NCBI GenBank assembly: GCA_963740085.1
Contig: CAVUCU010000007.1
Coordinates: 1-64,000, forward strand
Direction: 5' to 3'
Length of the DNA: 64,000 bases
From: Nitrospirota bacterium
GTDB taxonomy: Bacteria; Nitrospirota; UBA9217
The stretch's first letter is position 1. Each line of letters starts with the position of its first letter. Both the position numbers and the translations under genes were made by a program. The notes beneath the pieces are model-generated. The model worked only from the letters and a program-made list of their open reading frames with translations. It ran no database searches and was not told where the DNA came from. Shown in pieces: positions 1-59,816 of this stretch.

Positions 1-387
1 GCTCTACTGGGCCTGTTCTATAAAAAGCCCAAAACCGTGGGAAGGTGTCTGCTGAGTCAGGCGTGCAGAATGCACGTAAATAAAATTGTGGCAACCAATG
101 TTGGTTCTTTGCAGTAGACATAGTATCAAGTTAACAATATATTATCGAAACGGAATCTAGCATCTAATACTGCTTTCCCAAGTCAATCCTAGCCGTTCTT
201 GCCAAAAATTAACTCAGAAATACAGCTTGAAAAGTGCATAACGTCCAGATTTGATGGGTCTTACACCTGCAGGAAGGAATGCGCATCGCATATTTTACCT
301 GCGAGTTCTAAACCCCTTCCAAATTTATTTCTATCTCGACACCACCTACCGTGCTGCACAGGGCGATTTGTCAACAGAGGTGAAGTC

Positions 388-1390
388 TTATGGGTATTCT
401 AAAATTGAATTTATCTTGCCAAGTTCAATAGCTTCAAAGTACCTTGAATCTCCCTTTTCATTTGAGAGTTTGATTGAGCTTGATCTAGGCCCTGTAGTAC
501 TTCCTCTTTTTGTTGGGATATTTTTGTTCAAATCATAAAATGCTACAGTTAGACCTTCTCAAAATATTTTCATATCGCGAGATGTTGGCTTTAAGATAAT
601 CATATTGGGTACCGTCAATAAGATGTAACGAGGGGACGATGTCGTTCCTTATATTGTAAAAATACTGGAGATCGCAATCACATTCACCTAAGACGCTATT
701 AGCTCTTAAACTAAGTTTTTCGCCTTTTCTTTTTATATTTTTTGTTAAATACAAGGATTCAAGAGCAATCGTACAATCAATCAGCCTTTCTATCAAAATG
801 TACGGGTTGCGATTTTCAATGCTCCCTTTTAATAATATGTGAAGAGCGAAATTACAACGTATGTCAATTTGGTCAAACAGGGGTATTTTTTTTCTATAAG
901 GCATGTCGAACAAATCAAGATTTATTAAATAATCCTTCATTTCTTGTCTAAAAACTTCAAATGCCTTAACATCACCAGCATTCATTATATATTGATTGTC
1001 TTTTCTAATTCCACCACCGTCTCCATGGAATGGCATTTCGCGCAATTTGTCTTTATATGTGGTAAAAATAGAGGGGAAGATGATGTCACCGGGTTTAAAT
1101 AGTTTTAAAAGCCTAAACAGTGGGAAGAAAAATCCTCTCGAATTGTCTGGTAAAATCGATACGCTTTTTCCTCGACCTACATAATACCATTTGCATAGTA
1201 CATAGTCATCACTGTGAAAGATGCTGCAATATTTAAGTTCTTTCTGAAGTTCCTTCAAGTTATCATTTGATAACTTCTGTACCCAAAAACCATCGTATGG
1301 TGCATAATCGGCATTGAGGAAGGATAGATAGCCTTCATCCGATGTAAAATTTCTCAGTATCGCGCAAACATGTATGTTATTTTCAATCAT
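388..1390 (-). CDS. ApeA-like HEPN-domain protein (cassette), probably frameshifted near 545
   Basis: IALESLY...LSLRA...FYNIRNDIV(P) HEPN pattern; a shifted frame continues VAFYDLNKN...SILEYP* to about 388. Confidence 0.6.
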
Positions 1391-1395
1391 TTCCG

Positions 1396-1441
1396 ATTCA
1401 ACGCGTGGATTGCGCGTCGCTGTGGACCCGCTTTGTTAGAA
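1396..1441 (-). repeat. Degenerate or hybrid attC-like site
   Basis: Minus strand TTCTAAC-AAAGCGGGTCCACAGCGACGCGC...GTTGAAT; left arm nearly identical to the 1934-1993 site. Confidence 0.65.
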
Positions 1442-1645
1442 TCATCGGCGGATATTTGCCGGGAGCCTCTTGAGTGATAGGCTATATAATCGTATCTTCC
1501 TTTTCACTTTTTTCTTTGTTTTCTCTTCGCTTGTTAAACATTCCTGGCGACCCAGGCGGCTTCCAGTTTATTTCGCCCCAATTTGATGAAGATGATCACG
1601 GCAATTCGCTATATTGCATCGGGAGCATACTCCGCCAGAGAGAAG

Positions 1646-1680
1646 CCTAAACGAACACGAATACGACGTGATAGTTAGAA
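1646..1680 (-). repeat. Minimal attC-like hairpin (35 bp)
   Basis: TTCTAAC-TAT-CACG-tcgtatt-CGTG-TTC-GTTTAGG. Confidence 0.5.
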
Positions 1681-1933
1681 TGCTGTTCTAAATTCGACGA
1701 TCGTAGAGGAAGTTCTTGTTGTTCAATGATTACGATTATATCGTAACCGGACGGCAAGATAAAGCAGAAAAACGAGAAAAGATGATCATGAAAAATTCAT
1801 AATGAACTTTGCACATAATACTTCAACCGATATTTGTTGCTTCAGGACGATGCTGAGCCTTACGAAGAGCACCTACGAGCTTGCATGCGTGTTGACTAAA
1901 ATTCAATGCGAAATACTACTTGAAAAGTGTGTA

Positions 1934-1993
1934 TATGAACACGGCGGTCACGCGCCGACTTTAGGCGCGTCGCTGTGGACCGCCATGTTGGAA
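1934..1993 (-). repeat. attC-like site (60 bp)
   Basis: TTCCAAC-ATGGCGGTC(C)AC...GTGACCGCCGT-GTTCATA; arms pair with one unpaired C. Confidence 0.85.
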
Positions 1994-2057
1994 TTCGGGT
2001 ACTTCTATTCACGCATTACGGAGGACAGTATGTGCAAGAGAAGCGATAGAAAATATA

Positions 2058-2606
2058 TTATTCGTGGTCACATGTATGTTTCAATGGCATTGATTCGTCA
2101 AATGATAGAAAGATGTCTAAATTGTAGAGGTCGTGATTTAGTGTGTTCAGCTCCCCAAACAGAAGCGCAAATATTACGGCGCTTGAGGAATCCAAAGAAT
2201 AACGGTGAAGAAGGTGAGAATCGCCTAAAACGTAAACCGAGAAGAGTTCTTTGTCAGGAAGTTGAAAATTGGGGATATTAATGTCAAAGTTCTTTTTGTT
2301 CCGATTAAATAGCTGAGATAATAGCTCCGGATTCTTTCTTATACCGTATGAGAACCTCAATTCAAATTTTGCAAGGCGAGACGCTATTTTTTCTACGTCA
2401 ATTTTAGACATGAAACTAATCAATCTATCTTCTGGATCGAACATATATATACGCACGGTATTACCACGCAGCACTTTATCAAGAAAAGGCTCCTGTGGAA
2501 ATTGCTTTAATTTAGTTTTATCGCCATCGATGCTCATGGTAAATAAGCGCATCATTTCATCCGCGATTATTTTGAAATCGGCTCTAAATTGGGACAATTG
2601 ATCCAT
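2058..2606 (-). CDS. Hypothetical cassette protein (182 aa)
   Basis: ORF between two attC-like sites; RBS GGAGG overlaps the upstream GTTGGAG box. Confidence 0.7.
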   Translation of the reverse strand: MDQLSQFRADFKIIADEMMRLFTMSIDGDKTKLKQFPQEPFLDKVLRGNTVRIYMFDPEDRLISFMSKIDVEKIASRLAKFELRFSYGIRKNPELLSQLFNRNKKNFDINIPNFQLPDKELFSVYVLGDSHLLHRYSLDSSSAVIFALLFGELNTLNHDLYNLDIFLSFDESMPLKHTCDHE

Positions 2607-2616
2607 TATTTGTTAC

Positions 2617-2654
2617 CTCCAACAGCTCGCCTAAAGGTAGCCGAATGGTTAGAA
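2617..2654 (-). repeat. Short attC-like site (38 bp)
   Basis: TTCTAAC-CATTCGGCTA-cctt-TAGGCGAGCT-GTTGGAG; left end identical to the 4563-4621 site. Confidence 0.75.
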
Positions 2655-2664
2655 TCATCATGCG

Positions 2665-3597
2665 CTATTGTCTAACAAAAGCAACTTCTTCGAAATAATA
2701 CTCGTTATTTGAATGATCAAATTGGAAGATTCGAATTCTGTTACCAACAACCCAATGCTTTAATCCTTGGTAAAGTGAGTATATTTTATTTTTATCGTGT
2801 CGCGGCACAACAATAAATAATCTCGGGTTAGGTGATGTATCTTTGTACTCGTTATAATAACGTGAAACTTGGCCACATAATCTGTCGGCCGCGCTTGAGC
2901 TTAGATGTTTTGCCTTTAACTCTACAATAACATCTTCGCCTAATTTGTCTTTTGCGACAATATCCAGTGCGCCGGTCGCTATAAACTTCTGCTGTTTTAC
3001 GAATTTTAAACCCGGCTCAAGGGCTTCAATATTTAATGTAATGTATTCTTGAAGTTTTTCTTCGGGGTAATTTCTGATTAACTTTGCTTTTTGACGTAAT
3101 GGGATGTTATTCACCATACACCACTTGGAGAATTCGCTGCAATCCGTGAAATGCTTTCCCTCGCTGTCATTATATGACTTCTTTAATGATCCATTGATCG
3201 AGAAATCCTTATATTCCTTATACCACCTTGCAAATACGCCAAATTTATTAAACATTACCTCTGGACAAGAATTGGATATTTCAACGAGAAATTCTTTGGG
3301 GTTACTTGTGTTGTGTATAATACCCAAGTGCGGATTGAGTTGATAATCTGTTTCATCAATATCTTCGAAAGATAATGCCCGCCCCTTTCCCACAGTCATA
3401 TCATATATATAACTTGAATATTCCTTTGTTCCTTGACGACTGAGCAGCCATCTCGTGCCGCTTGCTCGCTCACAATCCGTTACAGCAGGACACCTGGATG
3501 GGTAGCCGGATTGTTCACTAAGCTTCTCATATTGAAGTTTAGAATACCCAAGACAGTCGTGATTTTTTTTAGCTTTTGCTTTTCGTTTAGTGGCCAT
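2665..3597 (-). CDS. Protein with C-terminal NucS/EndoMS-like PD-(D/E)xK nuclease domain (cassette)
   Basis: EEKLQEYI...LEPGL...GALDIVAKD...VELK...GQVSRYY; Cys-rich N-terminus. Confidence 0.75.
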   Translation of the reverse strand: MATKRKAKAKKNHDCLGYSKLQYEKLSEQSGYPSRCPAVTDCERASGTRWLLSRQGTKEYSSYIYDMTVGKGRALSFEDIDETDYQLNPHLGIIHNTSNPKEFLVEISNSCPEVMFNKFGVFARWYKEYKDFSINGSLKKSYNDSEGKHFTDCSEFSKWCMVNNIPLRQKAKLIRNYPEEKLQEYITLNIEALEPGLKFVKQQKFIATGALDIVAKDKLGEDVIVELKAKHLSSSAADRLCGQVSRYYNEYKDTSPNPRLFIVVPRHDKNKIYSLYQGLKHWVVGNRIRIFQFDHSNNEYYFEEVAFVRQ

Positions 3598-3655
3598 AGC
3601 TTAAAATTCCATGTGAAAACATGGTCTGTTAGTTAACACACAAGGTGTGCGTCAG

Positions 3656-3719
3656 AACTAACGTGCGGCCGGCTGACCCACCGGGCGAAACCCGGATGGT
3701 GTCTAGCCGCTGGTTGGAA
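3656..3719 (-). repeat. attC-like site (64 bp)
   Basis: TTCCAAC-CAGCGGCT(A)GAC...CCGGG-tttcg-CCCGG...GTCAGCCG...GTTAGTT. Confidence 0.8.
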
Positions 3720-3741
3720 TCATTTAGTTTGCTGAGAATCT

Positions 3742-4496
3742 TCATTTTGCTCTATGGACTTCGTTTTTGATCCCATGTGTATTATTCCATTTACGAATTA
3801 TCGGGTTTTTTAAAGTACCCTGCCCCATTTCTTTTCGACGATTTTCAGTGTCCACTAGATTGTCGGCTATCTTTGGGTTGCGGAGGAGACGATTAATCTC
3901 CCTGTGAAAAAGGGCGTTAATATCGTTCGCGGTTTTCGAGTATCCCTTATGGGTGGTTAAATCGAAATCTTCATTTTGGTCGGTTCCAATTAAAGCGCCG
4001 TCCCGATCAATCCAGCTGACGTGTTGAAAATATGCTACTTGCTTTTCCACGTCGAAATATACAAAGGCAGAAATAAATTTTACGAGATCAGGGTATGGTT
4101 TTTTATAACCCCGAGAGTTCCATTTTCAATTTTTTGCTTTAGCGTGCGCGCAAGCTCTTTTCTTTTTTTCCCATCTTTCAATTTGATTATCAGTCGAACA
4201 GTAAAATTCCCATCGTCAAGATATGATGTTGCGCCAGCATATATATGATTTTCGTCACCCAATAGGGGGCCGAGATTGGCATCTATCGAATCTGATGTTA
4301 TGTACGTATCTGATTGCGGCGACGATTTAACTAAAACCGGTTTTGTCCATTGATCGTTTAAACCCTGAACTACAAACGTTCCCTGTGGCCCAATCTGGAT
4401 TGGATGAAGCAATCTAGAGGACTCATAATCTTGTGCCTGAGAAATACTGAACAAGGCAAATACAAAAAATAATACCCAATTTGATATCGTCTTCAT
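3742..4496 (-). CDS. Secreted hypothetical cassette protein (ORFs 4080-4496 and 3742-4050, possibly one frameshifted gene)
   Basis: Signal peptide MKTISNWVLFFVFALFSISQA; no attC between the two ORFs. Confidence 0.55.
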
Positions 4497-4562
4497 TTTG
4501 TCATCCTTTGGTTTATTAGCTGCTCAGCGGCCTTGTCCGTCTGGAGCGTGTGCTTGGAGAAA

Positions 4563-4621
4563 GTCCAACGGCTCGGCTGATGGGCGCGTTTTTCGCGACC
4601 TCTCGAGCCGAATGGTTAGAA
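4563..4621 (-). repeat. attC site, best conserved copy (59 bp)
   Basis: TTCTAAC-CAT-TCGGCT(C)GA...TCAGCCGA-GCC-GTTGGAC; canonical GTTRRRY box; unpaired C gives an extrahelical G on the bottom strand. Confidence 0.9.
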
Positions 4622-4670
4622 CAATTTATTTGTATCTATTACGAAGGCGATCCGGGACCGCAAGCTCCTC

Positions 4671-5444
4671 TTAACCAATGTGCAGAACGAAGAGGGCCAT
4701 CGTCCGGCTTTGCGTCCGAAGACCACATACAAGCCCCCACAATATTATGCCATGACCAAACTGAGCCGCGAAGGCGAAAAAATCCTCCTGCGGTTTGTAC
4801 CCAGAAATATATTTAAAGCGATCACCGTATTCCTTGATATTCGGTCGTTGTCCCACGGTCAAGTTAGGCAATGTTGAAGTCAGAAAAGAATTCAATTTAT
4901 CAGTTCCACCGACTTGCGGCTGGTATGAACTAATATAGAAGTAATGATCTCGAGTCAAGATTTTGCCAACTTCACGAAGGTATAGAGCGTGAATGAATTT
5001 TTTCCCCATCATTTCAACCGCATCTTTTAGGACTGACGGTACAGGCAACGTGAAGGCAACTGGTTCGGGCGTGATGATTGAGCCAACTTTATTTATTGGA
5101 TACGATCTCGTTACATCGGGAAGAGCGTCTGGATAATTGTTGGCAATGCCCTGCCTCAGTTTTTGTATCTTCTTGTGAATTTCCTTATGGCGCACCATCG
5201 ATTCATCGAAATCTAGCAAAAATGAATATAAACCGAAAATTTGATCTTGCTTCTTTGAGCCTTCGTTGCAGACTTTACACGCTGGCGATTCAAAGCTGTG
5301 AGGTGCATATCCATCCGGAAAGCATGCTTGGGGAGGAACATGATCGATAGTAATAGCAGGGTTTATTCCACCGCAGAAATAGCAATCTGGATGTTCAATG
5401 AGAAACGTTTGCTGTCGCTTCTTTCGGCACATAGCGTTAGACAT
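4671..5444 (-). CDS. HNH-family nuclease-domain protein (cassette)
   Basis: CYFCG...TIDHVPP...ACKVCN zinc-binding HNH motif at the N-terminus. Confidence 0.75.
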   Translation of the reverse strand: MSNAMCRKKRQQTFLIEHPDCYFCGGINPAITIDHVPPQACFPDGYAPHSFESPACKVCNEGSKKQDQIFGLYSFLLDFDESMVRHKEIHKKIQKLRQGIANNYPDALPDVTRSYPINKVGSIITPEPVAFTLPVPSVLKDAVEMMGKKFIHALYLREVGKILTRDHYFYISSYQPQVGGTDKLNSFLTSTLPNLTVGQRPNIKEYGDRFKYISGYKPQEDFFAFAAQFGHGIILWGLVCGLRTQSRTMALFVLHIG

Positions 5445-5479
5445 TCTGGGCTCAACGACCTCCGATTCAAGTTGAGAAA

Positions 5480-5537
5480 GTACAGCATCTCGGCTAGGGA
5501 GCGGCTATCGCGACACTCTCGAGCCGAATGATTAGAA
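5480..5537 (-). repeat. Degenerate attC-like site (58 bp)
   Basis: TTCTAAT-CATTCGGCTCGAGAG...CTCCCTAGCCGAGAT-GCTGTAC; left arm matches the 4563-4621 site but core boxes are mutated. Confidence 0.75.
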
Positions 5538-5569
5538 TCTGCATGGGTCAAAACATCAAGTCACTGAAC

Positions 5570-6025
5570 TTACACTTCTTCTTTTACGCGAACCCACTCT
5601 TTCTTTAAAACCCGCTGTGATAGTTCAGTAATTTTGCCATGCGACTGAATGAACTGCTTGTCTAAGTCTGGCCCGCCCGCTATTGAATTAATCATGTCGC
5701 GCATTGCTTTTAATAGACCAACATGATCATCTTCCTTTGGGTTCAGCATGAGAATAATTCTTTGCTCAAGCTCAAGCAGGCGTTTGTACTCCTTGTCTGT
5801 CCGGTCGTCAAATCCAGTGAGAAAGTAATGGTGTGAACTACTAATTATCTAGACAGATCTTAGTTCATTTATCCAAGCCTGACGCATAGGAGCGATGATT
5901 TGTTTATTAGATATTCTCTGCGAAGTATCTATTTGACGTTTTGCAATTCGCCAAGATATAAACGGACCGACAAAAACGGCCAACAAGGCTATGGTTAGTG
6001 AGAGAACAGGGATTATTTCATTCAC
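5570..6025 (-). pseudogene. Single-TM hypothetical cassette protein interrupted by an in-frame TAG (5849-5851)
   Basis: RBS AGGAGG plus GTG; same frame continues past TAG: IISSSHHYF...LMLNPKEDDH...VLKKEWVRVKEEV*. Confidence 0.65.
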
Positions 6026-6045
6026 CAGAACATCCTCCTTGCGAC

Positions 6046-6081
6046 CGGCAACAAGGGGATCAATAGCCCCCCTCGTTAATA
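6046..6081 (-). repeat. Short attC-like hairpin
   Basis: TATTAAC-GAGGGG...CCCCTT-GTTGCCG. Confidence 0.45.
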
Positions 6082-6093
6082 CCGAAACTCTGT

Positions 6094-6138
6094 TCTTAAC
6101 GAGCCCCATAGATAATACCGGATTTTCGTGGTTATCTA
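6094..6138 (-). other. Candidate attI-like site
   Basis: GTTAAGA box at the array head, preceded by inverted repeat TAGATAA-N16-TTATCTA. Confidence 0.4.
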
Positions 6139-6467
6139 GTTTAGCAATGATTGTGCCATGTCGGATTTAATATTCAGCACGACTATAAACCTGATCTAAT
6201 AAGATGTCAACGGCAGTGAGGGGTAGTTACTGGGTATTTATTGGTAGGTTGGCTCAACGAATACAGGTTGTTAATTTAAGTGTGTCGTAAGATGGCAACT
6301 TCAACTGCTCCAGGAAGTTGATTGCGTATCATGAATATATCATAGATTTCACAATACATAAAGTATCTTCTGCGTGATATCATTACTACTAATAGAATCT
6401 TACTATCAAATGCCTCCCGACTTCATCCTAAAGAATCCCTAGAGGCACCATCACAACAGGAGGAACC

Positions 6468-7307
6468 ATGCAAATATCAAATGCCATAAGCACCTTCAGA
6501 ATGCAGCAATTCGCTACTCTAAGACCAAGCACGCAGGTTCACTACATCAAACTGCTCGATCAGCTCCAGCAGCATTTTAGCGGAAGAGAAATTGAATCAG
6601 TAACGGCTGATGAGGTCGGTCAATTTCTTGAATCGAAGACGGCAAACAAGGCTAAAGCGACGCGGCGATTAAAGTATGCGCAGGTTAAAGCGTTCTTTAA
6701 TTTTCTGATCAATGAGTGCCTCATTGATATCAAGAATCCCTGCTCACATCCGTTAGTTGCGAAGCAGTTTAAGAATCCCAAACCGGCAGCCCGGAAGATA
6801 TTAGACAAGGAACTTGTGGATCAGCTGATCTATAGTACTAAGTCGGACAGGGATCGTCTAATACTTGAACTACAGGCACGATGCGGATTAAGAATCGGGG
6901 AGGTACTCAAACTTCGGGCTGTCGATGTCGCTGACAGAAAGCTTACGATCCTTGAGCCGAAATCCGGCAAGGAAAGCGAAATTGCCTTCATGCCGGAGCA
7001 AATTGCAAAGAGGCTTGCCGAGTACATCGTTAACTGCAATATCGGTCCCGAGGCGCGACTCTTTCCCGTTTGTTATTCGACAGTGCGAGCACTGATCAGG
7101 CACTTGGCAGAAAAGTTCCGCGTGAAAATAACGCCACACGATTTCAGGCGACATTCAGCCACTTATGCCAGTAGGAATGGAGTTCCGTTGGAGATCGTTT
7201 CAAAGGTGATATTAAGACATCACGACCTCAAGACGACCCAGGTATACCTTGGCAAAGTCAATGATACCGAGGCTATCCGGTGGATGGATGTGCTCCACGG
7301 GAAATAA
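6468..7307 (+). CDS. Tyrosine recombinase (Xer-sized, no IntI insertion)
   Basis: CGLRIGE, KSGK, HDFRRH, ILRHHDLKTTQVY catalytic residues; RBS AGGAGG. Confidence 0.92.
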   Translation: MQISNAISTFRMQQFATLRPSTQVHYIKLLDQLQQHFSGREIESVTADEVGQFLESKTANKAKATRRLKYAQVKAFFNFLINECLIDIKNPCSHPLVAKQFKNPKPAARKILDKELVDQLIYSTKSDRDRLILELQARCGLRIGEVLKLRAVDVADRKLTILEPKSGKESEIAFMPEQIAKRLAEYIVNCNIGPEARLFPVCYSTVRALIRHLAEKFRVKITPHDFRRHSATYASRNGVPLEIVSKVILRHHDLKTTQVYLGKVNDTEAIRWMDVLHGK

Positions 7308-7503
7308 AATAGCATGTAACAGTTAGTATCAGTGCCTCTGGGGAAATAATTCAGCTTGAAATGTGCGATTTTTTAATTCATAATAGCTCGCGATTAACTT
7401 CCTATATCCAATGAGGTTTCCATTCTTCTAAACACTTAATGTTTGCTGTATTCTGCAACCTATTTACCAACATTTTCCCATTCGACACACGAGGTAATTG
7501 CCC

Positions 7504-7532
7504 TTGACAAGTAGTATCAATAGTGATACTAT
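7504..7532 (+). promoter_or_regulatory. sigma70 promoter with palindromic operator (hicAB)
   Basis: TTGACA-17 bp-TACTAT overlapped by TAGTATCA-N4-TGATACTA; ATG at 7538 suggests a leaderless mRNA. Confidence 0.7.
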
Positions 7533-7537
7533 TATTT

Positions 7538-7801
7538 ATGTCAACGATCGCGGATGTTGTTGCAGAGATGCGGAATAACCCGAAAGGAATACGTTTCACT
7601 GATGCGATCACGGTTTGTAACCATTATTTCGGAAAGCCGCGCCAGAAGAGCAGTAGTCATCATGTATATAAAACGCCGTGGATCGGGAATCCGCGTGTCA
7701 ATATTCAAAACGAAAAAGGTAAGGCCAAGGCGTACCAAGTAAGACAGATTCTGGCGGCAATTGATAAGTTGGAGGCCGAACATGCAAAAGAAAACAGATA
7801 A
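7538..7801 (+). CDS. hicA: HicA-family toxin
   Basis: NPKGIRF...FGKPRQKSSSHHVYKTPW...GKAKAYQVRQ. Confidence 0.85.
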   Translation: MSTIADVVAEMRNNPKGIRFTDAITVCNHYFGKPRQKSSSHHVYKTPWIGNPRVNIQNEKGKAKAYQVRQILAAIDKLEAEHAKENR

Positions 7802-8111
7802 ATATACCTACCGAGTAACGTGGTCAGAAGAAGATGCGGAATATGTCGGGTTGTGTGCTGAGTTCCCGGGCCTGAGCTGGCTTGCTAAATCACCTGAAGC
7901 GGCGCTAAAGGGAATCCGTGCGGTGGTATTTGACGCGCTCACGGACATGTCGCACAACCACGAACCATTGCCGGAGCCGATCGCTACAAAACATTTCAGT
8001 GGTAAGTTTGTGGTTCGAGTCCTTCCTGATGTACATAGACAGCTTGCGATTCAGGCGGCAGAAGCAGGGGTAAGCCTTAATCGGCTGGCCAGCGTAAAGC
8101 TCAGTCAGTAG
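7782..8111 (+). CDS. hicB: HicB-family antitoxin
   Basis: YTYRVTWSEED...CAEFPGLSW...FSGKFVVRV...EAGVSLNR. Confidence 0.88.
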   Translation: MQKKTDKYTYRVTWSEEDAEYVGLCAEFPGLSWLAKSPEAALKGIRAVVFDALTDMSHNHEPLPEPIATKHFSGKFVVRVLPDVHRQLAIQAAEAGVSLNRLASVKLSQ

Positions 8112-8479
8112 CGGATCGGGCGCGCTAAAGTTGTGTGCCCCACTGTCCCAACTGGGCTGCACTACTCTCTTCCCGCTGTTCAATAAGGATATCTGAAATC
8201 ATTATGCCGCTATTGTTGACCGGGATTCCCCTTACCGACCACAATCTCTTTCTTTTCTATTTAACGGGTTTCCATTCTTAGTAACAATGTAATTATCAAC
8301 CTGTATTTGTTAATGTTCAAACCATTTTCGTCATTCATTGTCATTAATAGCGATTACCGCAATTACCAAAATCCTGCTGAATATAATATTGCATCACGAA
8401 TTAAAATGGGGTATGCTTGAACATAAAGACAAGAGAGCCTGAATTGCTCAATTAATAAAACATACAAGGAGGATATTCA

Positions 8480-8677
8480 ATGGAAGGTCTTTTTCAGCCG
8501 ATGCATTTGATTATCATTTTAGCGATTGCACTGATAATATTTGGCCCGAGCAGGTTGCCGCAACTTGGGGAAGGACTTGGTAAAAGTATTAGGGAATTTA
8601 AAAAAGCTTTGAACGAAAAGGACGAACCACAAGAAATGACCAAATCAATTTCGCAGGGTAGTGAGAAAATCAAATGA
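8480..8677 (+). CDS. tatA: Twin-arginine translocase TatA/E
   Basis: [27 protein letters not shown]. Confidence 0.9.
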
Positions 8678-8832
8678 ATTCATAGAGACGTTTTATCCTT
8701 ATGTTTTAAATAAAAAAGTGAACACTGCCATCGCTGTGAACAATACACCATAGTACTGGAGAAGGGACTATAAGGCCCACCAAACGGACAGATTAAGACC
8801 GATATAGGAAACACATAGATACAAGAGATACT

Positions 8833-9101
8833 ATGAATTGGCATAAACACTTTACCGCATTTCTCATACTGGTTCTGCTGTTATCCACATTCGTGGCGGT
8901 GTTCCATCACCATGATAACAAGCGGCTGATCACGACTGCCCCATCTGTCTTGTAAGCCATCATCAGCACGCAACAGGCCAGACAACCATTGCTTTTGATA
9001 GCGTTCCTTTTTTCTTTGAAACAGTATATGTCCCTTCCGCACTAATAATTGTCGAGAAGATATTCGCCTCTTTCCAGAGCGACCGCGCACCACCCGCATA
9101 A
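8833..9101 (+). CDS. DUF2946/CruR-like metal-sensing leader peptide (about 89 aa, one frameshift near 8920)
   Basis: TM helix + HHH, then DHDCPIC...SDRAPPA* in the shifted frame; absent from the ORF track. Confidence 0.75.
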
Positions 9102-9249
9102 CTCCTCTCAAAACGCATTGCAGAATAGGGCCTACGTGAAACGCGCGTAATCAGGAAGACTGTTTGTAATCAGTCTTGCCATGATCTGTTTCGTGCGGTA
9201 TTCGTTCGGCCAGGGCATTTTCCTTTTTACGTTATCTCATGGAGGAGTT

Positions 9250-10597
9250 ATGAAACCAATCGCCATGTTTTGCATGGTATTCATGCTCGTGTTTGCGTTT
9301 TTATCTTCCACGGCTTTTGCCGAGGACCAGAACGAACGACTGAACAAGCTTGAGGAATCGCTTAAAAACCAGCAACAAACAATCGAACAGCAGCAAGTAA
9401 CCATCGACACGCTCAAAACGCAGGTAAATCAAAAGAACGATCAGGGTGCGCCAGCAGCGCCTACCTGCACCATCTTCCCAGAAGGCAAGCGGGTTATTCG
9501 GTGGCAGCGCCTTCACGAACCCCAATTTGTCCGTTGTCCTTGACACCTTCGGTTATTCCTCGAATCTCACGAATGAAGAACTGGCGAATCGTGGAATCCC
9601 TGGTTTTACCACGCAGGGGCTTGACCAGCGGAATGGATTCAACCTCGATTCAGTGGAACTTTTTATCTTTTCACCGGTAGACCCCTATTTCAATTTCTAC
9701 ACAAACATCCCGGTAACGGAAAACGGCGTGAGCATTGAAGAGGCGTACGTCGTGACCACGGCCCTTCCCGAAGGCTGGCAGGTCAAGGGCGGCAAGTTTA
9801 AAAGCAATTTCAGCCGCCTCGACGCGCAGCATCCTCATGCCTGGGATTTCTGGGACATTGCCTTGCCTTACCGCGCGTTTTTCGGCAACGAGGGTCTGGG
9901 CGGAGAAAAAGGCGTGCAGCTTACGTATCTGCCGACCTTGCCCATTTACACCATATTCGGCGCTGAAGTGCTTCAGGGAGAGAATCCTCTCCTGTTCGGG
10001 CCGGGAGCAGCGGAGGAGAGTCCGCATGCCTTTACATTTTTCGTAAAAAGCTCCGTTGATACGAGCGACTACTCGACGATCTATTTCGGACCGTCCGTGC
10101 TTTTTGGTAAGACAGACAGCACGAACATCCTTCCTAACAATTCGAGGTCAAAGGCAACAGCGCCCTGTATGGTCTGGAAGCAGTCTGGAAATGGAAGCCC
10201 ACGAGCAAGAAGGCGTTGACGATCCAGAGCGAATATCTGTTTCTTACTCAATCAGGAACCGCGACGGACCTCACCACTGCTGCCGTCGATTCGCTGCGGC
10301 GCAGGCAGGACGGGTTCTATGTCCAAGGGATCTATCGAATAAACCGATGGGGGATAGGCGCACGGTATGACGCGCTCAACGTATTTTCCGATACCTTCTA
10401 AGCTGGCAGGAGTGCAAAAAGACTATGGCAAGCCCTGGCGCGAGACAGCCAGTCTTGAGTACAACCCCAGTGAATTCGCCCGAATCAGGCTTCAGCTCAG
10501 CCATGATCGTTCAGATACCATGACCGCGCGGACGAACGATGAGGCGATACTACAATTTAACTTCACCGTCGGAGCCCATCCGGCGCATTCATTTTAG
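9250..10597 (+). CDS. Outer-membrane beta-barrel of metal (Zn-regulated type) uptake locus; several frameshifts
   Basis: Signal peptide + coiled coil; NPNLSVVLD, VDPYF, EEAY, HPHAWDF, C-terminal GAHPAHSF across 4 ORF fragments. Confidence 0.8.
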
Positions 10598-13049: not shown

Positions 13050-13300
13050 CAACCCGAAAAGGGGCAGGGCTTTTTTTATGGTATGCTGTTGTAACTTTCT
13101 CCGATCACTCTAGTGTCATTATCAACTAGAATTCTTTGGCATCGTCATAAAATTGACATTGCAGTTAAGTAGGTGAAGACCGCATTTCATCGCCTCACTG
13201 ATTAATGCAAGATTCCAGATGAAGTCTATATTTCATACTTGTCAGACAGCGGTCCTGAGTTGGCACTCAAAAAAAGGGCTGGATTTCTCCAGCCCATAAA

Positions 13301-13320
13301 TTGTGCCCATTTTGTGCCTA
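13301..13320 (+). repeat. Arm-type-like direct repeats near island end
   Basis: TTGTGCCCA / TTGTGCCTA tandem about 130 bp inside the tRNA fragment. Confidence 0.45.
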
Positions 13321-13450
13321 TCGCAGCCAGAAATCACCTGACGCCAGCTGACTCCATCTGAGATGCCTGCATTCATGAACCTCTTGCCTATCAAGGATTT
13401 TATTGCTAATTCAAGAGATTCCTGACGAACAAATTTTTCATGAATTTGCT

Positions 13451-13516
13451 CTTCAAATCCGCTGTTTCCTGGCTTTGGTCAGGAAAGGTGAGTTCGATTC
13501 TCATGCTCTCCCGCCA
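13451..13516 (+). tRNA. selC: 3' fragment of tRNA-Sec (attachment-site remnant)
   Basis: CTTCAAA loop (UCA anticodon), long variable arm TTTCCTGGC-tttg-GTCAGGAAA, T-arm GTGAG-TTCGATT-CTCAT, GCTCTCCC-GCCA; no matching 5' half upstream. Confidence 0.82.
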
Positions 13517-19679: not shown

Positions 19680-19728
19680 CAAAAAGCCGGGGGCCTCAAT
19701 ATCGACTGGATATTTCGGCAACCCGGCT
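19680..19728 (-). terminator. Riboswitch expression-platform terminator
   Basis: AGCCGGG (aptamer 3' strand) pairs with CCCGGCT followed by a T-tract. Confidence 0.75.
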
Positions 19729-19788
19729 GTCTCTTGGAGATCCTGAAGGTTTTCCGCCCCACCCTCGCGGGTGGTTTAGTATTGTCGT
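19709..19788 (-). ncRNA. Class I cyclic-dinucleotide (GEMM-I) riboswitch, GEMM-Ib cyclic AMP-GMP type
   Basis: ACGACAATACTAAACCACCC-GCGA-GGGTGGGGCGGAAAACCTTCAGGATCTC-CAA-GAGACAGCCGGGTTGCCGAAAT. Confidence 0.9.
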
Positions 19789-19924
19789 CTACCCTGCTTC
19801 TGTGTAGTAATAAATACTCGCGTCAAGAAGACCTGCCGAAACATTTCATTCACCATAATCCGGCAGCCAGGAATGCATTATTAAGGTCGGTTACGTATTT
19901 CCATGCATTACTGAAGTACTATAT

Positions 19925-31790: not shown

Positions 31791-32300
31791 TCACCGGGCG
31801 ATCGCGCGCATGATAAGGTCCGCCACGCCTGCCGCATCGTTAAGATCAAAACAAGGGATCGAAACTTCGAACGGTCTGTCGCTCACCAGTGCGAGATAGG
31901 ACGGGTCGTTCTGCGAAAGAGGGCGTTCACCCGAGACCCCCTGGCGAAAGACCTCTATTTTGTTCATCGCATTTTTTTTGAACCCCTCGGTGATCACGAT
32001 CTCAACATCCCCTGCCAGCCTCGCCAGCTCATCAGGGGTCGGTTCATGTTCGACCTTCTGCATGAGCGCAACCCTGCCCGGTCCCGAAAGAATGACCGCA
32101 TCGGCTCCTGCCTGCTGAAAGCGCCATGAGTCCTTGCCCGGCTTGTCGAGGTCAAACCCTGCCGACGCATGCTTGATCACTGCGACGCGCAAACCGCGGC
32201 CCTTGAGGATGCGTACCACTTTTTCTATGAGCGTGGTCTTGCCGCTATTTGAAGACGCGGCTACGAAAGAGACCACTCGCTGTATTTTTACCTTCCGCAT
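31791..32300 (-). CDS. mobB: Molybdopterin-guanine dinucleotide biosynthesis protein B
   Basis: NSGKTTLIEK, IKH, DKPGKDSW, EGFK. Confidence 0.92.
   Translation of the reverse strand: MRKVKIQRVVSFVAASSNSGKTTLIEKVVRILKGRGLRVAVIKHASAGFDLDKPGKDSWRFQQAGADAVILSGPGRVALMQKVEHEPTPDELARLAGDVEIVITEGFKKNAMNKIEVFRQGVSGERPLSQNDPSYLALVSDRPFEVSIPCFDLNDAAGVADLIMRAIAR

Positions 32301-58536: not shown

Positions 58537-59816
<1,280 letters not shown>

Follow-up and report, generated by a model that had tools for sequence, protein, structure and literature searches.

A probable orphan integron cassette array beside an unrelated Xer-like recombinase in a Nitrospirota genome

Background

Which enzyme serves an array of attC-bounded cassettes when the gene at its head encodes a tyrosine recombinase that does not look like an integron integrase (IntI)? 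The window analysed here, a 64-kb stretch of DNA from a Nitrospirota bacterium, raises this question: AT-rich, co-oriented genes parted by attC sites occupy positions 1-6109 and a divergent tyrosine recombinase gene stands at their head (Table 1), exactly where intI would be expected. The original prediction, which had described this layout correctly, proposed either that a separate recombinase lineage runs the cassette system or that such an enzyme has replaced intI beside an orphan array. If true as submitted, this would mean that attC cassettes can be run by a second lineage of enzymes.

Integron cassette clusters without their own integrase (CALIN) are defined, in the sections of the IntegronFinder 2 paper that deal with them, by at least two attC sites no more than 4 kb apart and no IntI nearby (PMC9024848). 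The corresponding sections of the two IntegronFinder papers give five to six attC sites per CALIN on average and place half of the CALINs in IntI-encoding genomes (PMC4889954, PMC9024848).

Results

attC sites, cassettes and the integrase of the genome

Two covariance models (R1 and R2) were used, both tailored to the kind of attC that this bacterial family carries. R2, built from 36 IntI-adjacent attC sites, all taken from 11 other members of the family and none from this genome, recovers five sites in the window (A, C, E, F and G), every one on the expected minus strand and separated by gaps of 0.5, 1.7, 0.8 and 0.9 kb. The R1 scan of the genome (3.46 Mb; 150 of 2060 candidates scored) returned 18 sites, about one per 190 kb, of which five lie inside 4.2 kb of the window; no attC cluster elsewhere in the genome is as large as this array. 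As a positive control, 12/12 IntI flanks of relatives were matched, with 60 matches at E<=1.

The minus-strand pattern R'' TTCYAAC ... R' GTTRRRY is found in sites A, C, D, E, F and G. Pairing holds for 77.9% of the pair cells in the A3 alignment and drops to 29-40% once the partner is shifted by one to three columns; none of 500 shuffles equalled the 77.9%. Taken singly, minus-strand hairpins exceed shuffled sequences in energy at sites C, F and E (z -4.7, -2.9 and -2.5) and do not at A, D and G (0.2, -1.8 and -0.3). The attC type is that of the genome's own integron, since the 5' arm of site A (93% identity over 30 nt) and site C (92% over 36 nt) match its IntI-adjacent site c5_2. Site D shares TTCTAACCATTCGGCT with site F and looks like site F with the middle deleted. 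Soil metagenome contigs share positions 4567-4621 (site F) with dissimilar sequence on either side, run X1 giving four loose ends before 4567 and two behind 4621, with further ones in X6 and X7.

As the original prediction had reported, the entry box of each of three consecutive cassettes co-varies with the exit box of the same cassette (6/7, 5/7 and 6/7 matching positions). The variable fourth base agrees in 3/3 of these cassettes, which at a two-state position amounts to p = 1/8 only, against 0/3 when a site is compared with its own adjacent R'. This co-variation is absent (3/7 or 4/7) from the cassettes after G and after C, and from the one after B if B is real.

The array region has a GC content of 0.32-0.47, compared with 0.53-0.55 across the seven contigs of the genome, and reaches the contig start, so that its full extent and far flank lie outside the available sequence. 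A NucS_C nuclease domain in a 310-aa protein is the only over-threshold family match among the eight cassette proteins; a 257-aa protein gives weak HNH and PDC-M01B matches. No intI remnant and no other IntI-like frame was found anywhere in the 64-kb window.

The one IntI of the genome above the curated cut-off is encoded on another contig (C5:330983-331921; 361-368 bits against 265, with 368.4 for the C5 protein as control). It spans the model from end to end without stops and is followed, on the divergent strand, by a small array of attC-bounded cassettes with three attC sites (R1), the first cassette having entry GTTGGAA and exit R'' TTCCAAC (7/7 match). Within this Nitrospirota family, IntI is present in 29 of the 61 genomes searched.

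Table 1. Features located in the window, listed by position
Feature	Position	Strand	Details
Eight cassette ORFs	533-6109	-	533-1390, 2058-2606, 2665-3597, 3742-4050, 4080-4496, 4671-5444, 5570-5749, 5849-6109 (ORF list)
attC site A	1396-1441	-	3' arm largely missing; R2 32.4 bits; R1 36.3 bits though outside R1 training set
Candidate B	1646-1680		35 nt; matched by neither R1 nor R2
attC site C	1934-1993	-	well formed; R2 69.4 bits; hairpin z -4.68
attC-like site D	2617-2654	-	38 nt; boxes obey cassette rule; matched by neither R1 nor R2
attC site E	3656-3719	-	R2 21.9 bits; R1 40.8 bits (inside R1 training set); hairpin z -2.46
attC site F	4563-4621	-	site of the original prediction; R2 44.7 bits; hairpin z -2.85 (minus), -4.12 (plus strand)
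attC site G	5480-5537	-	degenerate; R'' TTCTAAT, R' GCTGTAC; R2 18.4 bits; hairpin not significant
Sigma-70-like promoter reading into array head	6182-6210	-	TTGACA-17-TATAGT, 11/12 consensus positions; consensus match only
REP copy 1 (dispersed ~85-nt repeat)	6251-6335	+	nhmmer 65.8 bits; opposite in orientation to copies 2 and 3
Inverted repeat, left arm	6436-6448	+	TCCCTAGAGGCAC; 12/13 complementary to 7332-7344
Xer-like tyrosine recombinase, not IntI	6468-7307	+	279 aa; profile searches
Inverted repeat, right arm	7332-7344	+	GTGCCTCTGGGGA
REP copy 2	7383-7474	-	nhmmer 45.5 bits
hicA/hicB-like toxin-antitoxin module	7504-8111	+	hicA-like ORF (ATG) 7538-7801; hicB-like ORF 7761-8111
REP copy 3	8233-8317	-	nhmmer 49.0 bits
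Island right edge	8375	.	beyond: 93% identity to island-less same-genus genome G003

The recombinase and its family

The recombinase has the predicted length; its KSGK and LFP motifs are separated by 29 residues (about 30 had been claimed), and it also carries ...ILRHHDLKTTQVYLGK. IntI needs an extra segment for binding folded attC; in agreement with the original prediction this segment is missing, the alignment giving 40 residues against 90 in the IntI of this genome. Scored against IntI profiles, the protein is not an IntI (TIGR02249 44.8 bits against 265; PRK15417 21.7 against 435). PF00589 (67.7 bits against 27.1) establishes membership of the tyrosine recombinase superfamily only, and the scores for XerA_Arch (NF040815, 121.1 bits against 220), TIGR02225 (68.1 against 329.6) and TIGR02224 (62.3 against 335.2) are below the XerA/XerC/XerD equivalog cut-offs. 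Its closest solved relatives are XerA-type chains, with IntI4 at just 22.7 bits. The protein thus resembles archaeal XerA and bacterial XerC/XerD in its best HMM and solved-structure matches, its size of about 280 aa and its SAM-like N-terminal domain followed by a catalytic domain; it differs from them in falling below all curated cut-offs, in its patchy, accessory distribution and in having no identified dif-like site. Separate XerC/XerD-like genes lie on contig C4.

The family is present in eight of the 201 genomes of the phylum searched, and 98 of the best 120 relatives are exactly 279 aa long. The stretch conserved between copies measures about 0.9-1.03 kb, a clade-covarying inverted repeat of 8-22 nt brackets the gene in 75/75 homologous loci, and a -10-like box precedes it in most of them. 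The recombinase gene is carried by a small, self-contained unit, about 1 kb in size, that has spread horizontally and has a promoter-like box of its own. Literature searches found no description of such an inverted-repeat-bracketed recombinase unit.

The enrichment of attC arrays beside homologues, for which the original prediction had proposed a test, was not seen. The first model matched at 2/72 genome loci of homologues (931 kb; one match of 39 bits and one weak of 18 bits) and 0/80 metagenome loci (460 kb), that is 2/152 loci against 12/12 IntI flanks, for models that may miss the attC of Syntrophales and other distant hosts, to which many of these loci belong; R2 matched at 1/100 loci (1.24 Mb). 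The 39-bit match, of the same attC type, lies about 500 bp upstream of a recombinase with 83% identity (locus L012). The window and L012 are thus two closer loci near attC, above the expectation from genome-wide density.

Repeats and modules between the array and tatA

The stretch from the array to the host gene tatA is a mosaic of single-gene modules, first the recombinase and next hicAB, whose boundaries are marked by REP, a repeat aligned over six copies and confined to the closest clade. The hicAB-like module has a promoter (TTGACA-17-TACTAT, 10/12 consensus positions with TG) over a palindrome. Its HicB-like part matches phrog_9151 and phrog_497 (E 4.5e-6 and 7.8e-6); the upstream 92-aa ORF has no match in Pfam, PHROGs or NCBIfam, and its HicA label is our reading of the sequence. 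The recombinase and hicAB are found apart from each other in metagenomes. All module breakpoints seen in metagenome contigs (6311/6313, 7415, 7450 and 8240) are located within a copy of REP. The right edge of the island is based on blastn of 8375-8770 against L101 and on X4 and X7 contigs, which diverge from the window before 8375/8376.

Single-gene modules that include a toxin-antitoxin pair, are bounded by short repeats and lie beside an Xer-like enzyme resemble the pdif modules known from Acinetobacter plasmids. The inverted copies of an intergenic dispersed repeat on either side of a recombinase gene resemble REP/RAYT systems. Unlike these, the repeat is about 85 nt rather than a 28-bp dif-like site and is confined to the closest clade, and the enzyme is a tyrosine recombinase rather than an HUH Y1 transposase; any action of this enzyme on REP would be conjecture.

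Discussion

Because the IntI sits on C5, R2 finds five sites in the window and the recombinase family shows no link to attC, window 1-6109 is very probably a CALIN beside an unrelated Xer-like recombinase, an assignment that rests, like the attC calls, on purpose-built covariance models and not on that of IntegronFinder. At least two attC sites within 4 kb are present and the only IntI is on another contig. Compared with the CALINs treated in the sections cited above (Cury et al. 2016, PMC4889954; IntegronFinder 2.0, PMC9024848), the array is alike in its five or more attC sites, which share one orientation and lie within less than 4 kb of each other, its cassettes of unknown function, the lack of an IntI or intI pseudogene nearby and the complete integron elsewhere in the genome; it differs in touching a contig end and in the unrelated tyrosine recombinase at its head. 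With sedentary chromosomal integrons (IntI, attI and attC array) it shares the cassette structure, the G/TT box logic, the co-oriented R''/R' sites after the cassettes, an attC type common to the IntI-adjacent arrays of the family and a divergent recombinase gene. No IntI is adjacent, however: the recombinase fails the IntI models and is without the IntI-specific insertion, and no attI was identified at the array, attI sites having no general model; of the attI site and Pc promoter that would mark an integron head, the promoter-like match at 6182-6210 is all that was found. IntI-type G/TT recombination, acting on folded attC sites, would have produced the cassettes and assembled them into the array; if they are still mobile, the canonical IntI of C5 is probably the enzyme that serves them in trans. 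The way in which this locus lost its intI, and the role of the recombinase, we infer rather than observe.

That the 279-aa recombinase itself recombines these attC sites, as a non-IntI integron, is hardly credible. Its divergent position at the array head, the presence of all catalytic motifs (R..K..HxxR..H..Y read from the alignment) and the L012 copy that also adjoins an attC speak for it; yet the IntI-specific segment is missing, attC accompanies the homologues far more rarely than IntI genes, the nearest attC is the degenerate site G, separated from the recombinase by the dispersed repeat and 930 bp, and in L012 attC and recombinase are on the same strand, opposite to the layout here. The original prediction had itself named as grounds against it the two things that were found, homologues without attC association and a canonical intI elsewhere in the genome. 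A separate lineage running a cassette system is thus unsupported and, since the evidence points to a commonplace orphan array whose genome also has a normal integron, the claim of a second attC-running enzyme lineage should be dropped. Of the alternative claim, replacement of intI beside an orphan array, the orphan array stands and active replacement does not. One rather improbable scenario would give replacement a narrower sense: an ancestral integron, with the array as its body, would have had its intI-attI head removed or split off through a rearrangement at REP, and the recombinase and hicAB modules would have come with that event, so that intI was replaced physically and not functionally. 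The integron on C5 is short, whereas the genome has no attC cluster larger than the orphan array; all metagenome breakpoints seen fall within REP copies, and the same-genus genome G004 carries an intI remnant and a single attC, showing that integron loci decay in the genus; against this, the locus retains no intI or attI remnant, and array-side synteny with relatives is broken, so that no ancestral state can be reconstructed.

It is very unlikely that the whole low-GC island (array, recombinase and hicAB) is one integrative element with the 279-aa protein as integrase and the cassettes as cargo. The island does end about 1 kb past the recombinase relative to a same-genus genome, the L012 gene begins 85 nt after a tRNA-Lys gene and the family is patchy; however, tRNA adjacency was seen in 1/30 loci scanned, the tRNA-end repeat was not found downstream in L012, no neighbour gene is conserved among 39 loci, conservation between copies extends over no more than about 0.9-1.03 kb, recombinase and hicAB are found apart, and flanking direct repeats exceed shuffles in only about 6/58 loci, without a common sequence. 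As unlikely as the ancestral integron is that the family constitutes an undescribed type of compact module for recombination, about 1 kb in size, whose enzyme would in this Nitrospirota clade exchange modules of one gene each (its own, hicAB and possibly others) at the ~85-nt repeat. Transcription would then start from the left arm of the clade-covarying inverted repeat under the module's own promoter, the right arm lying just past the stop codon, and a second cassette-like system would adjoin an integron array that it has perhaps itself decapitated.

Conclusions

In this Nitrospirota family, of which few genomes have been sampled, both integrons and orphan arrays seem to be frequent, whereas for the phylum the relevant part of a 2022 RefSeq survey gives only two CALINs (PMC9024848). 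The architecture of the recombinase unit is strikingly uniform across phyla and may be the sign of a small unit, mobile or self-regulating, that has so far gone unrecognised.

The window array and its attC sites

The window opens contig C7 and covers its initial 64 kb. The genome (3.46 Mb in seven contigs, GC 0.53-0.55) shows low GC, 0.32-0.47, across window positions 1-9400, with eight ORFs on the minus strand (533-6109). Read on that strand, the inter-ORF sites start with TTCYAAC and end with GTTRRRY. The stretch of site F (55-59 nt) was found again in soil metagenome contigs with unlike flanks on both sides, which matches the expectation for a cassette recombination site. The suggestion that the entry box of a cassette co-varies with its own exit box held for three consecutive window cassettes and failed for the remaining ones; it is also true of both checkable cassettes on contig C5 (7/7, and position 4 matched). 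No cassette protein received a confident defence assignment from PADLOC.

A scan for attC by regular expression and folding energy was too noisy, F being the only true site among many GC-rich false matches, and was dropped for covariance models. Model R1 was trained on 12 sites of this genome; because four of these lie in the window, a second model, R2, was built from 36 IntI-adjacent sites of 11 other genomes of the family and nothing else. With 150 of 2060 first-look candidates scored, R1 recognised at least 18 sites genome-wide: five in the window, three beside IntI and the rest in small clusters or as singles. R2 recovered C, F, A, E and G, in every case on the minus strand; E<=1 was otherwise reached only by C in antisense and by a single partial match at 32179. 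The genome encodes one canonical IntI (C5:330983-331921; 361-368 bits for a cut-off of 265, model covered end to end), followed by cassettes on the divergent strand, and the attC beside it, c5_2, is 92% identical to site C over 36 nt and 93% identical to site A over 30 nt. Because of this IntI, this identity and the matches of both models, we consider the window array to be an integron array.

Two further hairpins were noticed. One, small and perfect-ended (GTTAGTT ... AACTAAC, z -2.05), directly follows the R' core box of site E and looks like a second, minimal R'/R'' pair. The other, near the contig start, is possibly an extra attC-like site (R'' TTAGAAC, R' GTTATGC, z -2.45) that both models miss; a 38-nt stretch adjoining it (199-236) is 79% identical to the one adjoining site C (1892-1929).

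Features of the window and related elements elsewhere (R2 scores in bits; C1 to C7, contigs of the genome; L012, closest homologue locus from a genome)
Feature	Position	Strand	Remarks
Possible attC-like hairpin	240-320	-	
attC-type site A	1396-1441	-	3' arm missing; no hairpin beyond shuffles; R2 32
attC-type site C	1934-1993	-	hairpin beyond shuffled controls; R2 69
attC-type site D	2617-2654	-	resembles F minus its middle; hairpin not beyond shuffles
Small hairpin beside site E	3627-3662		
attC-type site E	3656-3719	-	hairpin beyond shuffled controls; R2 22
attC-type site F	4563-4621	-	hairpin beyond shuffled controls; R2 45
attC-type site G	5480-5537	-	R' degenerate (GCTGTAC); hairpin not beyond shuffles; R2 18
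~85-nt repeat	6251-6335	+	
Left inverted-repeat arm	6436-6448		around recombinase gene
Recombinase gene	6468-7307	+	279 aa
Right inverted-repeat arm	7332-7344		around recombinase gene
~85-nt repeat	7383-7474	-	
hicAB-like pair	7504-8111		own promoter, after recombinase
~85-nt repeat	8233-8317	-	
c-di-GMP-I riboswitch aptamer	19714-19790	-	41.9 bits (gathering score 35)
Single attC match	C7:65939		just past window end
Other single attC matches	C3:188683, C4:24464, C1:851745, C1:1586804, C1:133789		
Two-site attC cluster	C3:57302-57360, 59167-59226		
Two-site attC cluster	C1:1002405-1002464, 1003550-1003606		
~85-nt repeat, intergenic	C1:264401-264489, 845543-845613, 951782-951851, 954355-954427		
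~85-nt repeat, intergenic	C5:387378-387451, 387988-388062		
Repeat copies in L012	9543-9717, 12945-13119, 16995-17108		
Short repeat copy in L012	10926-11008		

Nature and distribution of the recombinase

The recombinase gene is divergent from the array ORFs. Its product is not an IntI, in agreement with the original prediction: it scores 44.8 bits with the IntI model and 121 with the archaeal XerA model, each under its cut-off, and among solved structures XerA-type proteins match it best, IntI4 being marginal (22.7 bits). In the alignment, 40 residues separate the beta-hairpin lysine region from the HxxR motif whereas the genome's own IntI has 90, so that the IntI-specific insertion is missing, as had been claimed. 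No intI remnant was found within the 64-kb window. The ESM Atlas returned generic integrase clusters only, and the listings and abstracts covered by a literature search described neither this 279-aa family nor any action of a non-IntI enzyme on attC.

The family is large (2735 matches at E<=1e-3; 98 of the best 120 are exactly 279 aa). We gathered 72 genome and 80 metagenome loci with homologues; homologous loci carry Nitrospirota labels. Three relatives at about 61% identity (P0065, P0091, P0092) are labelled Hodarchaeales / Heimdallarchaeota MAGs, for which cross-domain spread and binning error are both possible. R1 was positive at every one of the 12 IntI loci taken from relatives (60 matches at E<=1 in 174 kb of flanking sequence), in contrast to two of the 72 genome loci (931 kb; L012 with 39 bits, L030 with 18 bits) and none of the 80 metagenome loci (460 kb), and R2 was positive at one of 100 homologue loci (1.24 Mb; L012), the models being perhaps less sensitive in distant hosts (many loci are from Syntrophales and others). 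Among the close relatives (77-88% identical; about a dozen metagenome and several genome loci), L012 alone was attC-positive. The recombinase family is apparently not tied to attC arrays. Such rarity of attC at homologue loci, set against 12/12 IntI flanks and with a canonical IntI elsewhere in the genome, contradicts the proposal that a separate recombinase lineage runs the cassettes.

Architecture and mobility of the recombinase unit

The recombinase is patchily distributed: among 201 genomes of the phylum, 8 carry it, with one to three copies each, fragments included, and the four other same-genus genomes of the sample do not; copies of one genome or genus can be aligned over about 0.92-1.03 kb only. 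No neighbour gene is conserved across 39 loci, the largest neighbour cluster (nine loci) being a multi-copy sensor-type family. An inverted repeat of 8-22 nt surrounds the gene at all 75 loci with both flanks (23/23 from genomes, 52/52 from metagenomes; L011-L082 and L122-L201), its arms lying 20-55 nt upstream of the start and 8-57 nt downstream of the stop. The arm sequence varies by clade, yet is maintained on both sides (GCAGACCCYGGC, CCCCAGAGGC, AACCCCAAAGRCC, TTCCCCAAAGGTC, ACATACCCCAA). Since a TAnAAT-like (-10-like) box precedes the left arm by about 6-8 nt in most loci, with none outside the right arm (by eye, uncounted), the transcript is predicted to start at the left arm.

Twenty-six of the 57 distinct arm pairs are perfect, and the mismatches comprise 21 transitions that are G-U-compatible in sense RNA, 8 that are not and 14 transversions. 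This G-U-compatible excess (21 vs 8; one-sided binomial p = 0.012, overstated because the loci are related) hints that the 5' and 3' ends of the recombinase mRNA may pair through the arms; it is equally possible that the arms are protein-binding sites on DNA. An inversion switch was rejected: in almost all of the 75 loci the -10-like box is 5' of the gene (by eye, uncounted; a few lack a clear one), and none of them shows an inverted state; assemblies would mask a rare one. Targeting of tRNA genes was also discarded, as 1 of 30 loci has a tRNA next to it and the tRNA end is not repeated distally in L012. Flanking direct repeats are poor candidates for att sites: they stand above the shuffled controls at about 6 of 58 loci, their sequences are unrelated, and that of locus L014 lies 76 nt outside the junction. 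An empty site around L014, sought in 10 genomes of its genus, gave no clean case and no exact ends; in one relative the left flank matches as far as L014 9881, and the far side differs too. These empty-site and direct-repeat comparisons yielded neither the ends of the unit nor a target site. The inner inverted-repeat motif has 11-18 near-matches per genome (three genomes); despite 0-3 for a reversed-pattern control, we do not claim enrichment, since this is about the hand estimate for a 13-mer with one mismatch.

Dispersed repeat and local mosaic

Besides the three window copies, the ~85-nt repeat has about ten more in ordinary intergenic regions of the genome and others in the closest homologue loci (L011, L012, L013, L040, L067, L074). 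It lies mostly upstream of opposite-strand genes, contains a conserved small hairpin, (C)AACYTC - 10-13 nt - GARGTT(G), and has no match in Rfam; an attC-like hairpin was rejected (z -2.2 to +0.8 in seven copies). The repeat measures about 170 nt in L012, where its copies, arrayed in direct orientation 3.4-4 kb apart, enclose tRNA-Lys, a hydrolase gene and the recombinase together with other genes.

Likeness of metagenome contigs to the window begins or ends at 6311/6313, 7415, 7450, 8240 and 8375, and a same-genus genome that lacks the island starts to resemble the window at 8375, just before the host gene tatA. The metagenome edges suggest that the recombinase and the hicAB-like pair occur as separate modules bounded inside repeat copies; at 90% likeness, they may just mark rising divergence. 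The sequencing runs hold contigs only, without reported joints (at most 0.46 of sampled words in any run), and are thus silent on excision or inversion. The hicAB-like promoter is near-consensus, and the palindrome it overlaps (GTATCA...TGATAC) is probably an operator. Another HicB/HicA-like pair, read from sequence, is a cassette of the C5 integron (L009, about 13069-13480).

Origin of the array

The attC type of the window cassettes is the one found beside IntI throughout the bacterial family, and the same genome encodes an intact IntI. The array would have been made by IntI, which could excise or reshuffle, in trans, those cassettes whose sites are intact (C, E and F), sites A, D and G probably being in decay. 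A rearrangement at the dispersed repeats may plausibly have removed intI from the array head, given that G004, a genome of the same genus, shows a decayed intI and one attC elsewhere. This truncated gene (C12:1310518-1311055 of G004, model positions 123-313; attC at about 1311727) sits between blocks syntenic to C1:286.3 kb and 289.1 kb of the present genome, where there is no attC match.

A non-IntI integron is unsupported, the recombinase being under the IntI cut-off and its homologue loci rarely attC-positive. The element is of a known kind, a CALIN (an attC cluster lacking an integron integrase) beside an unrelated tyrosine recombinase, for which mobility of its own unit, module exchange at repeats or something else are candidate roles. 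One point alone merits a further look: the recombinase family's uniform architecture.
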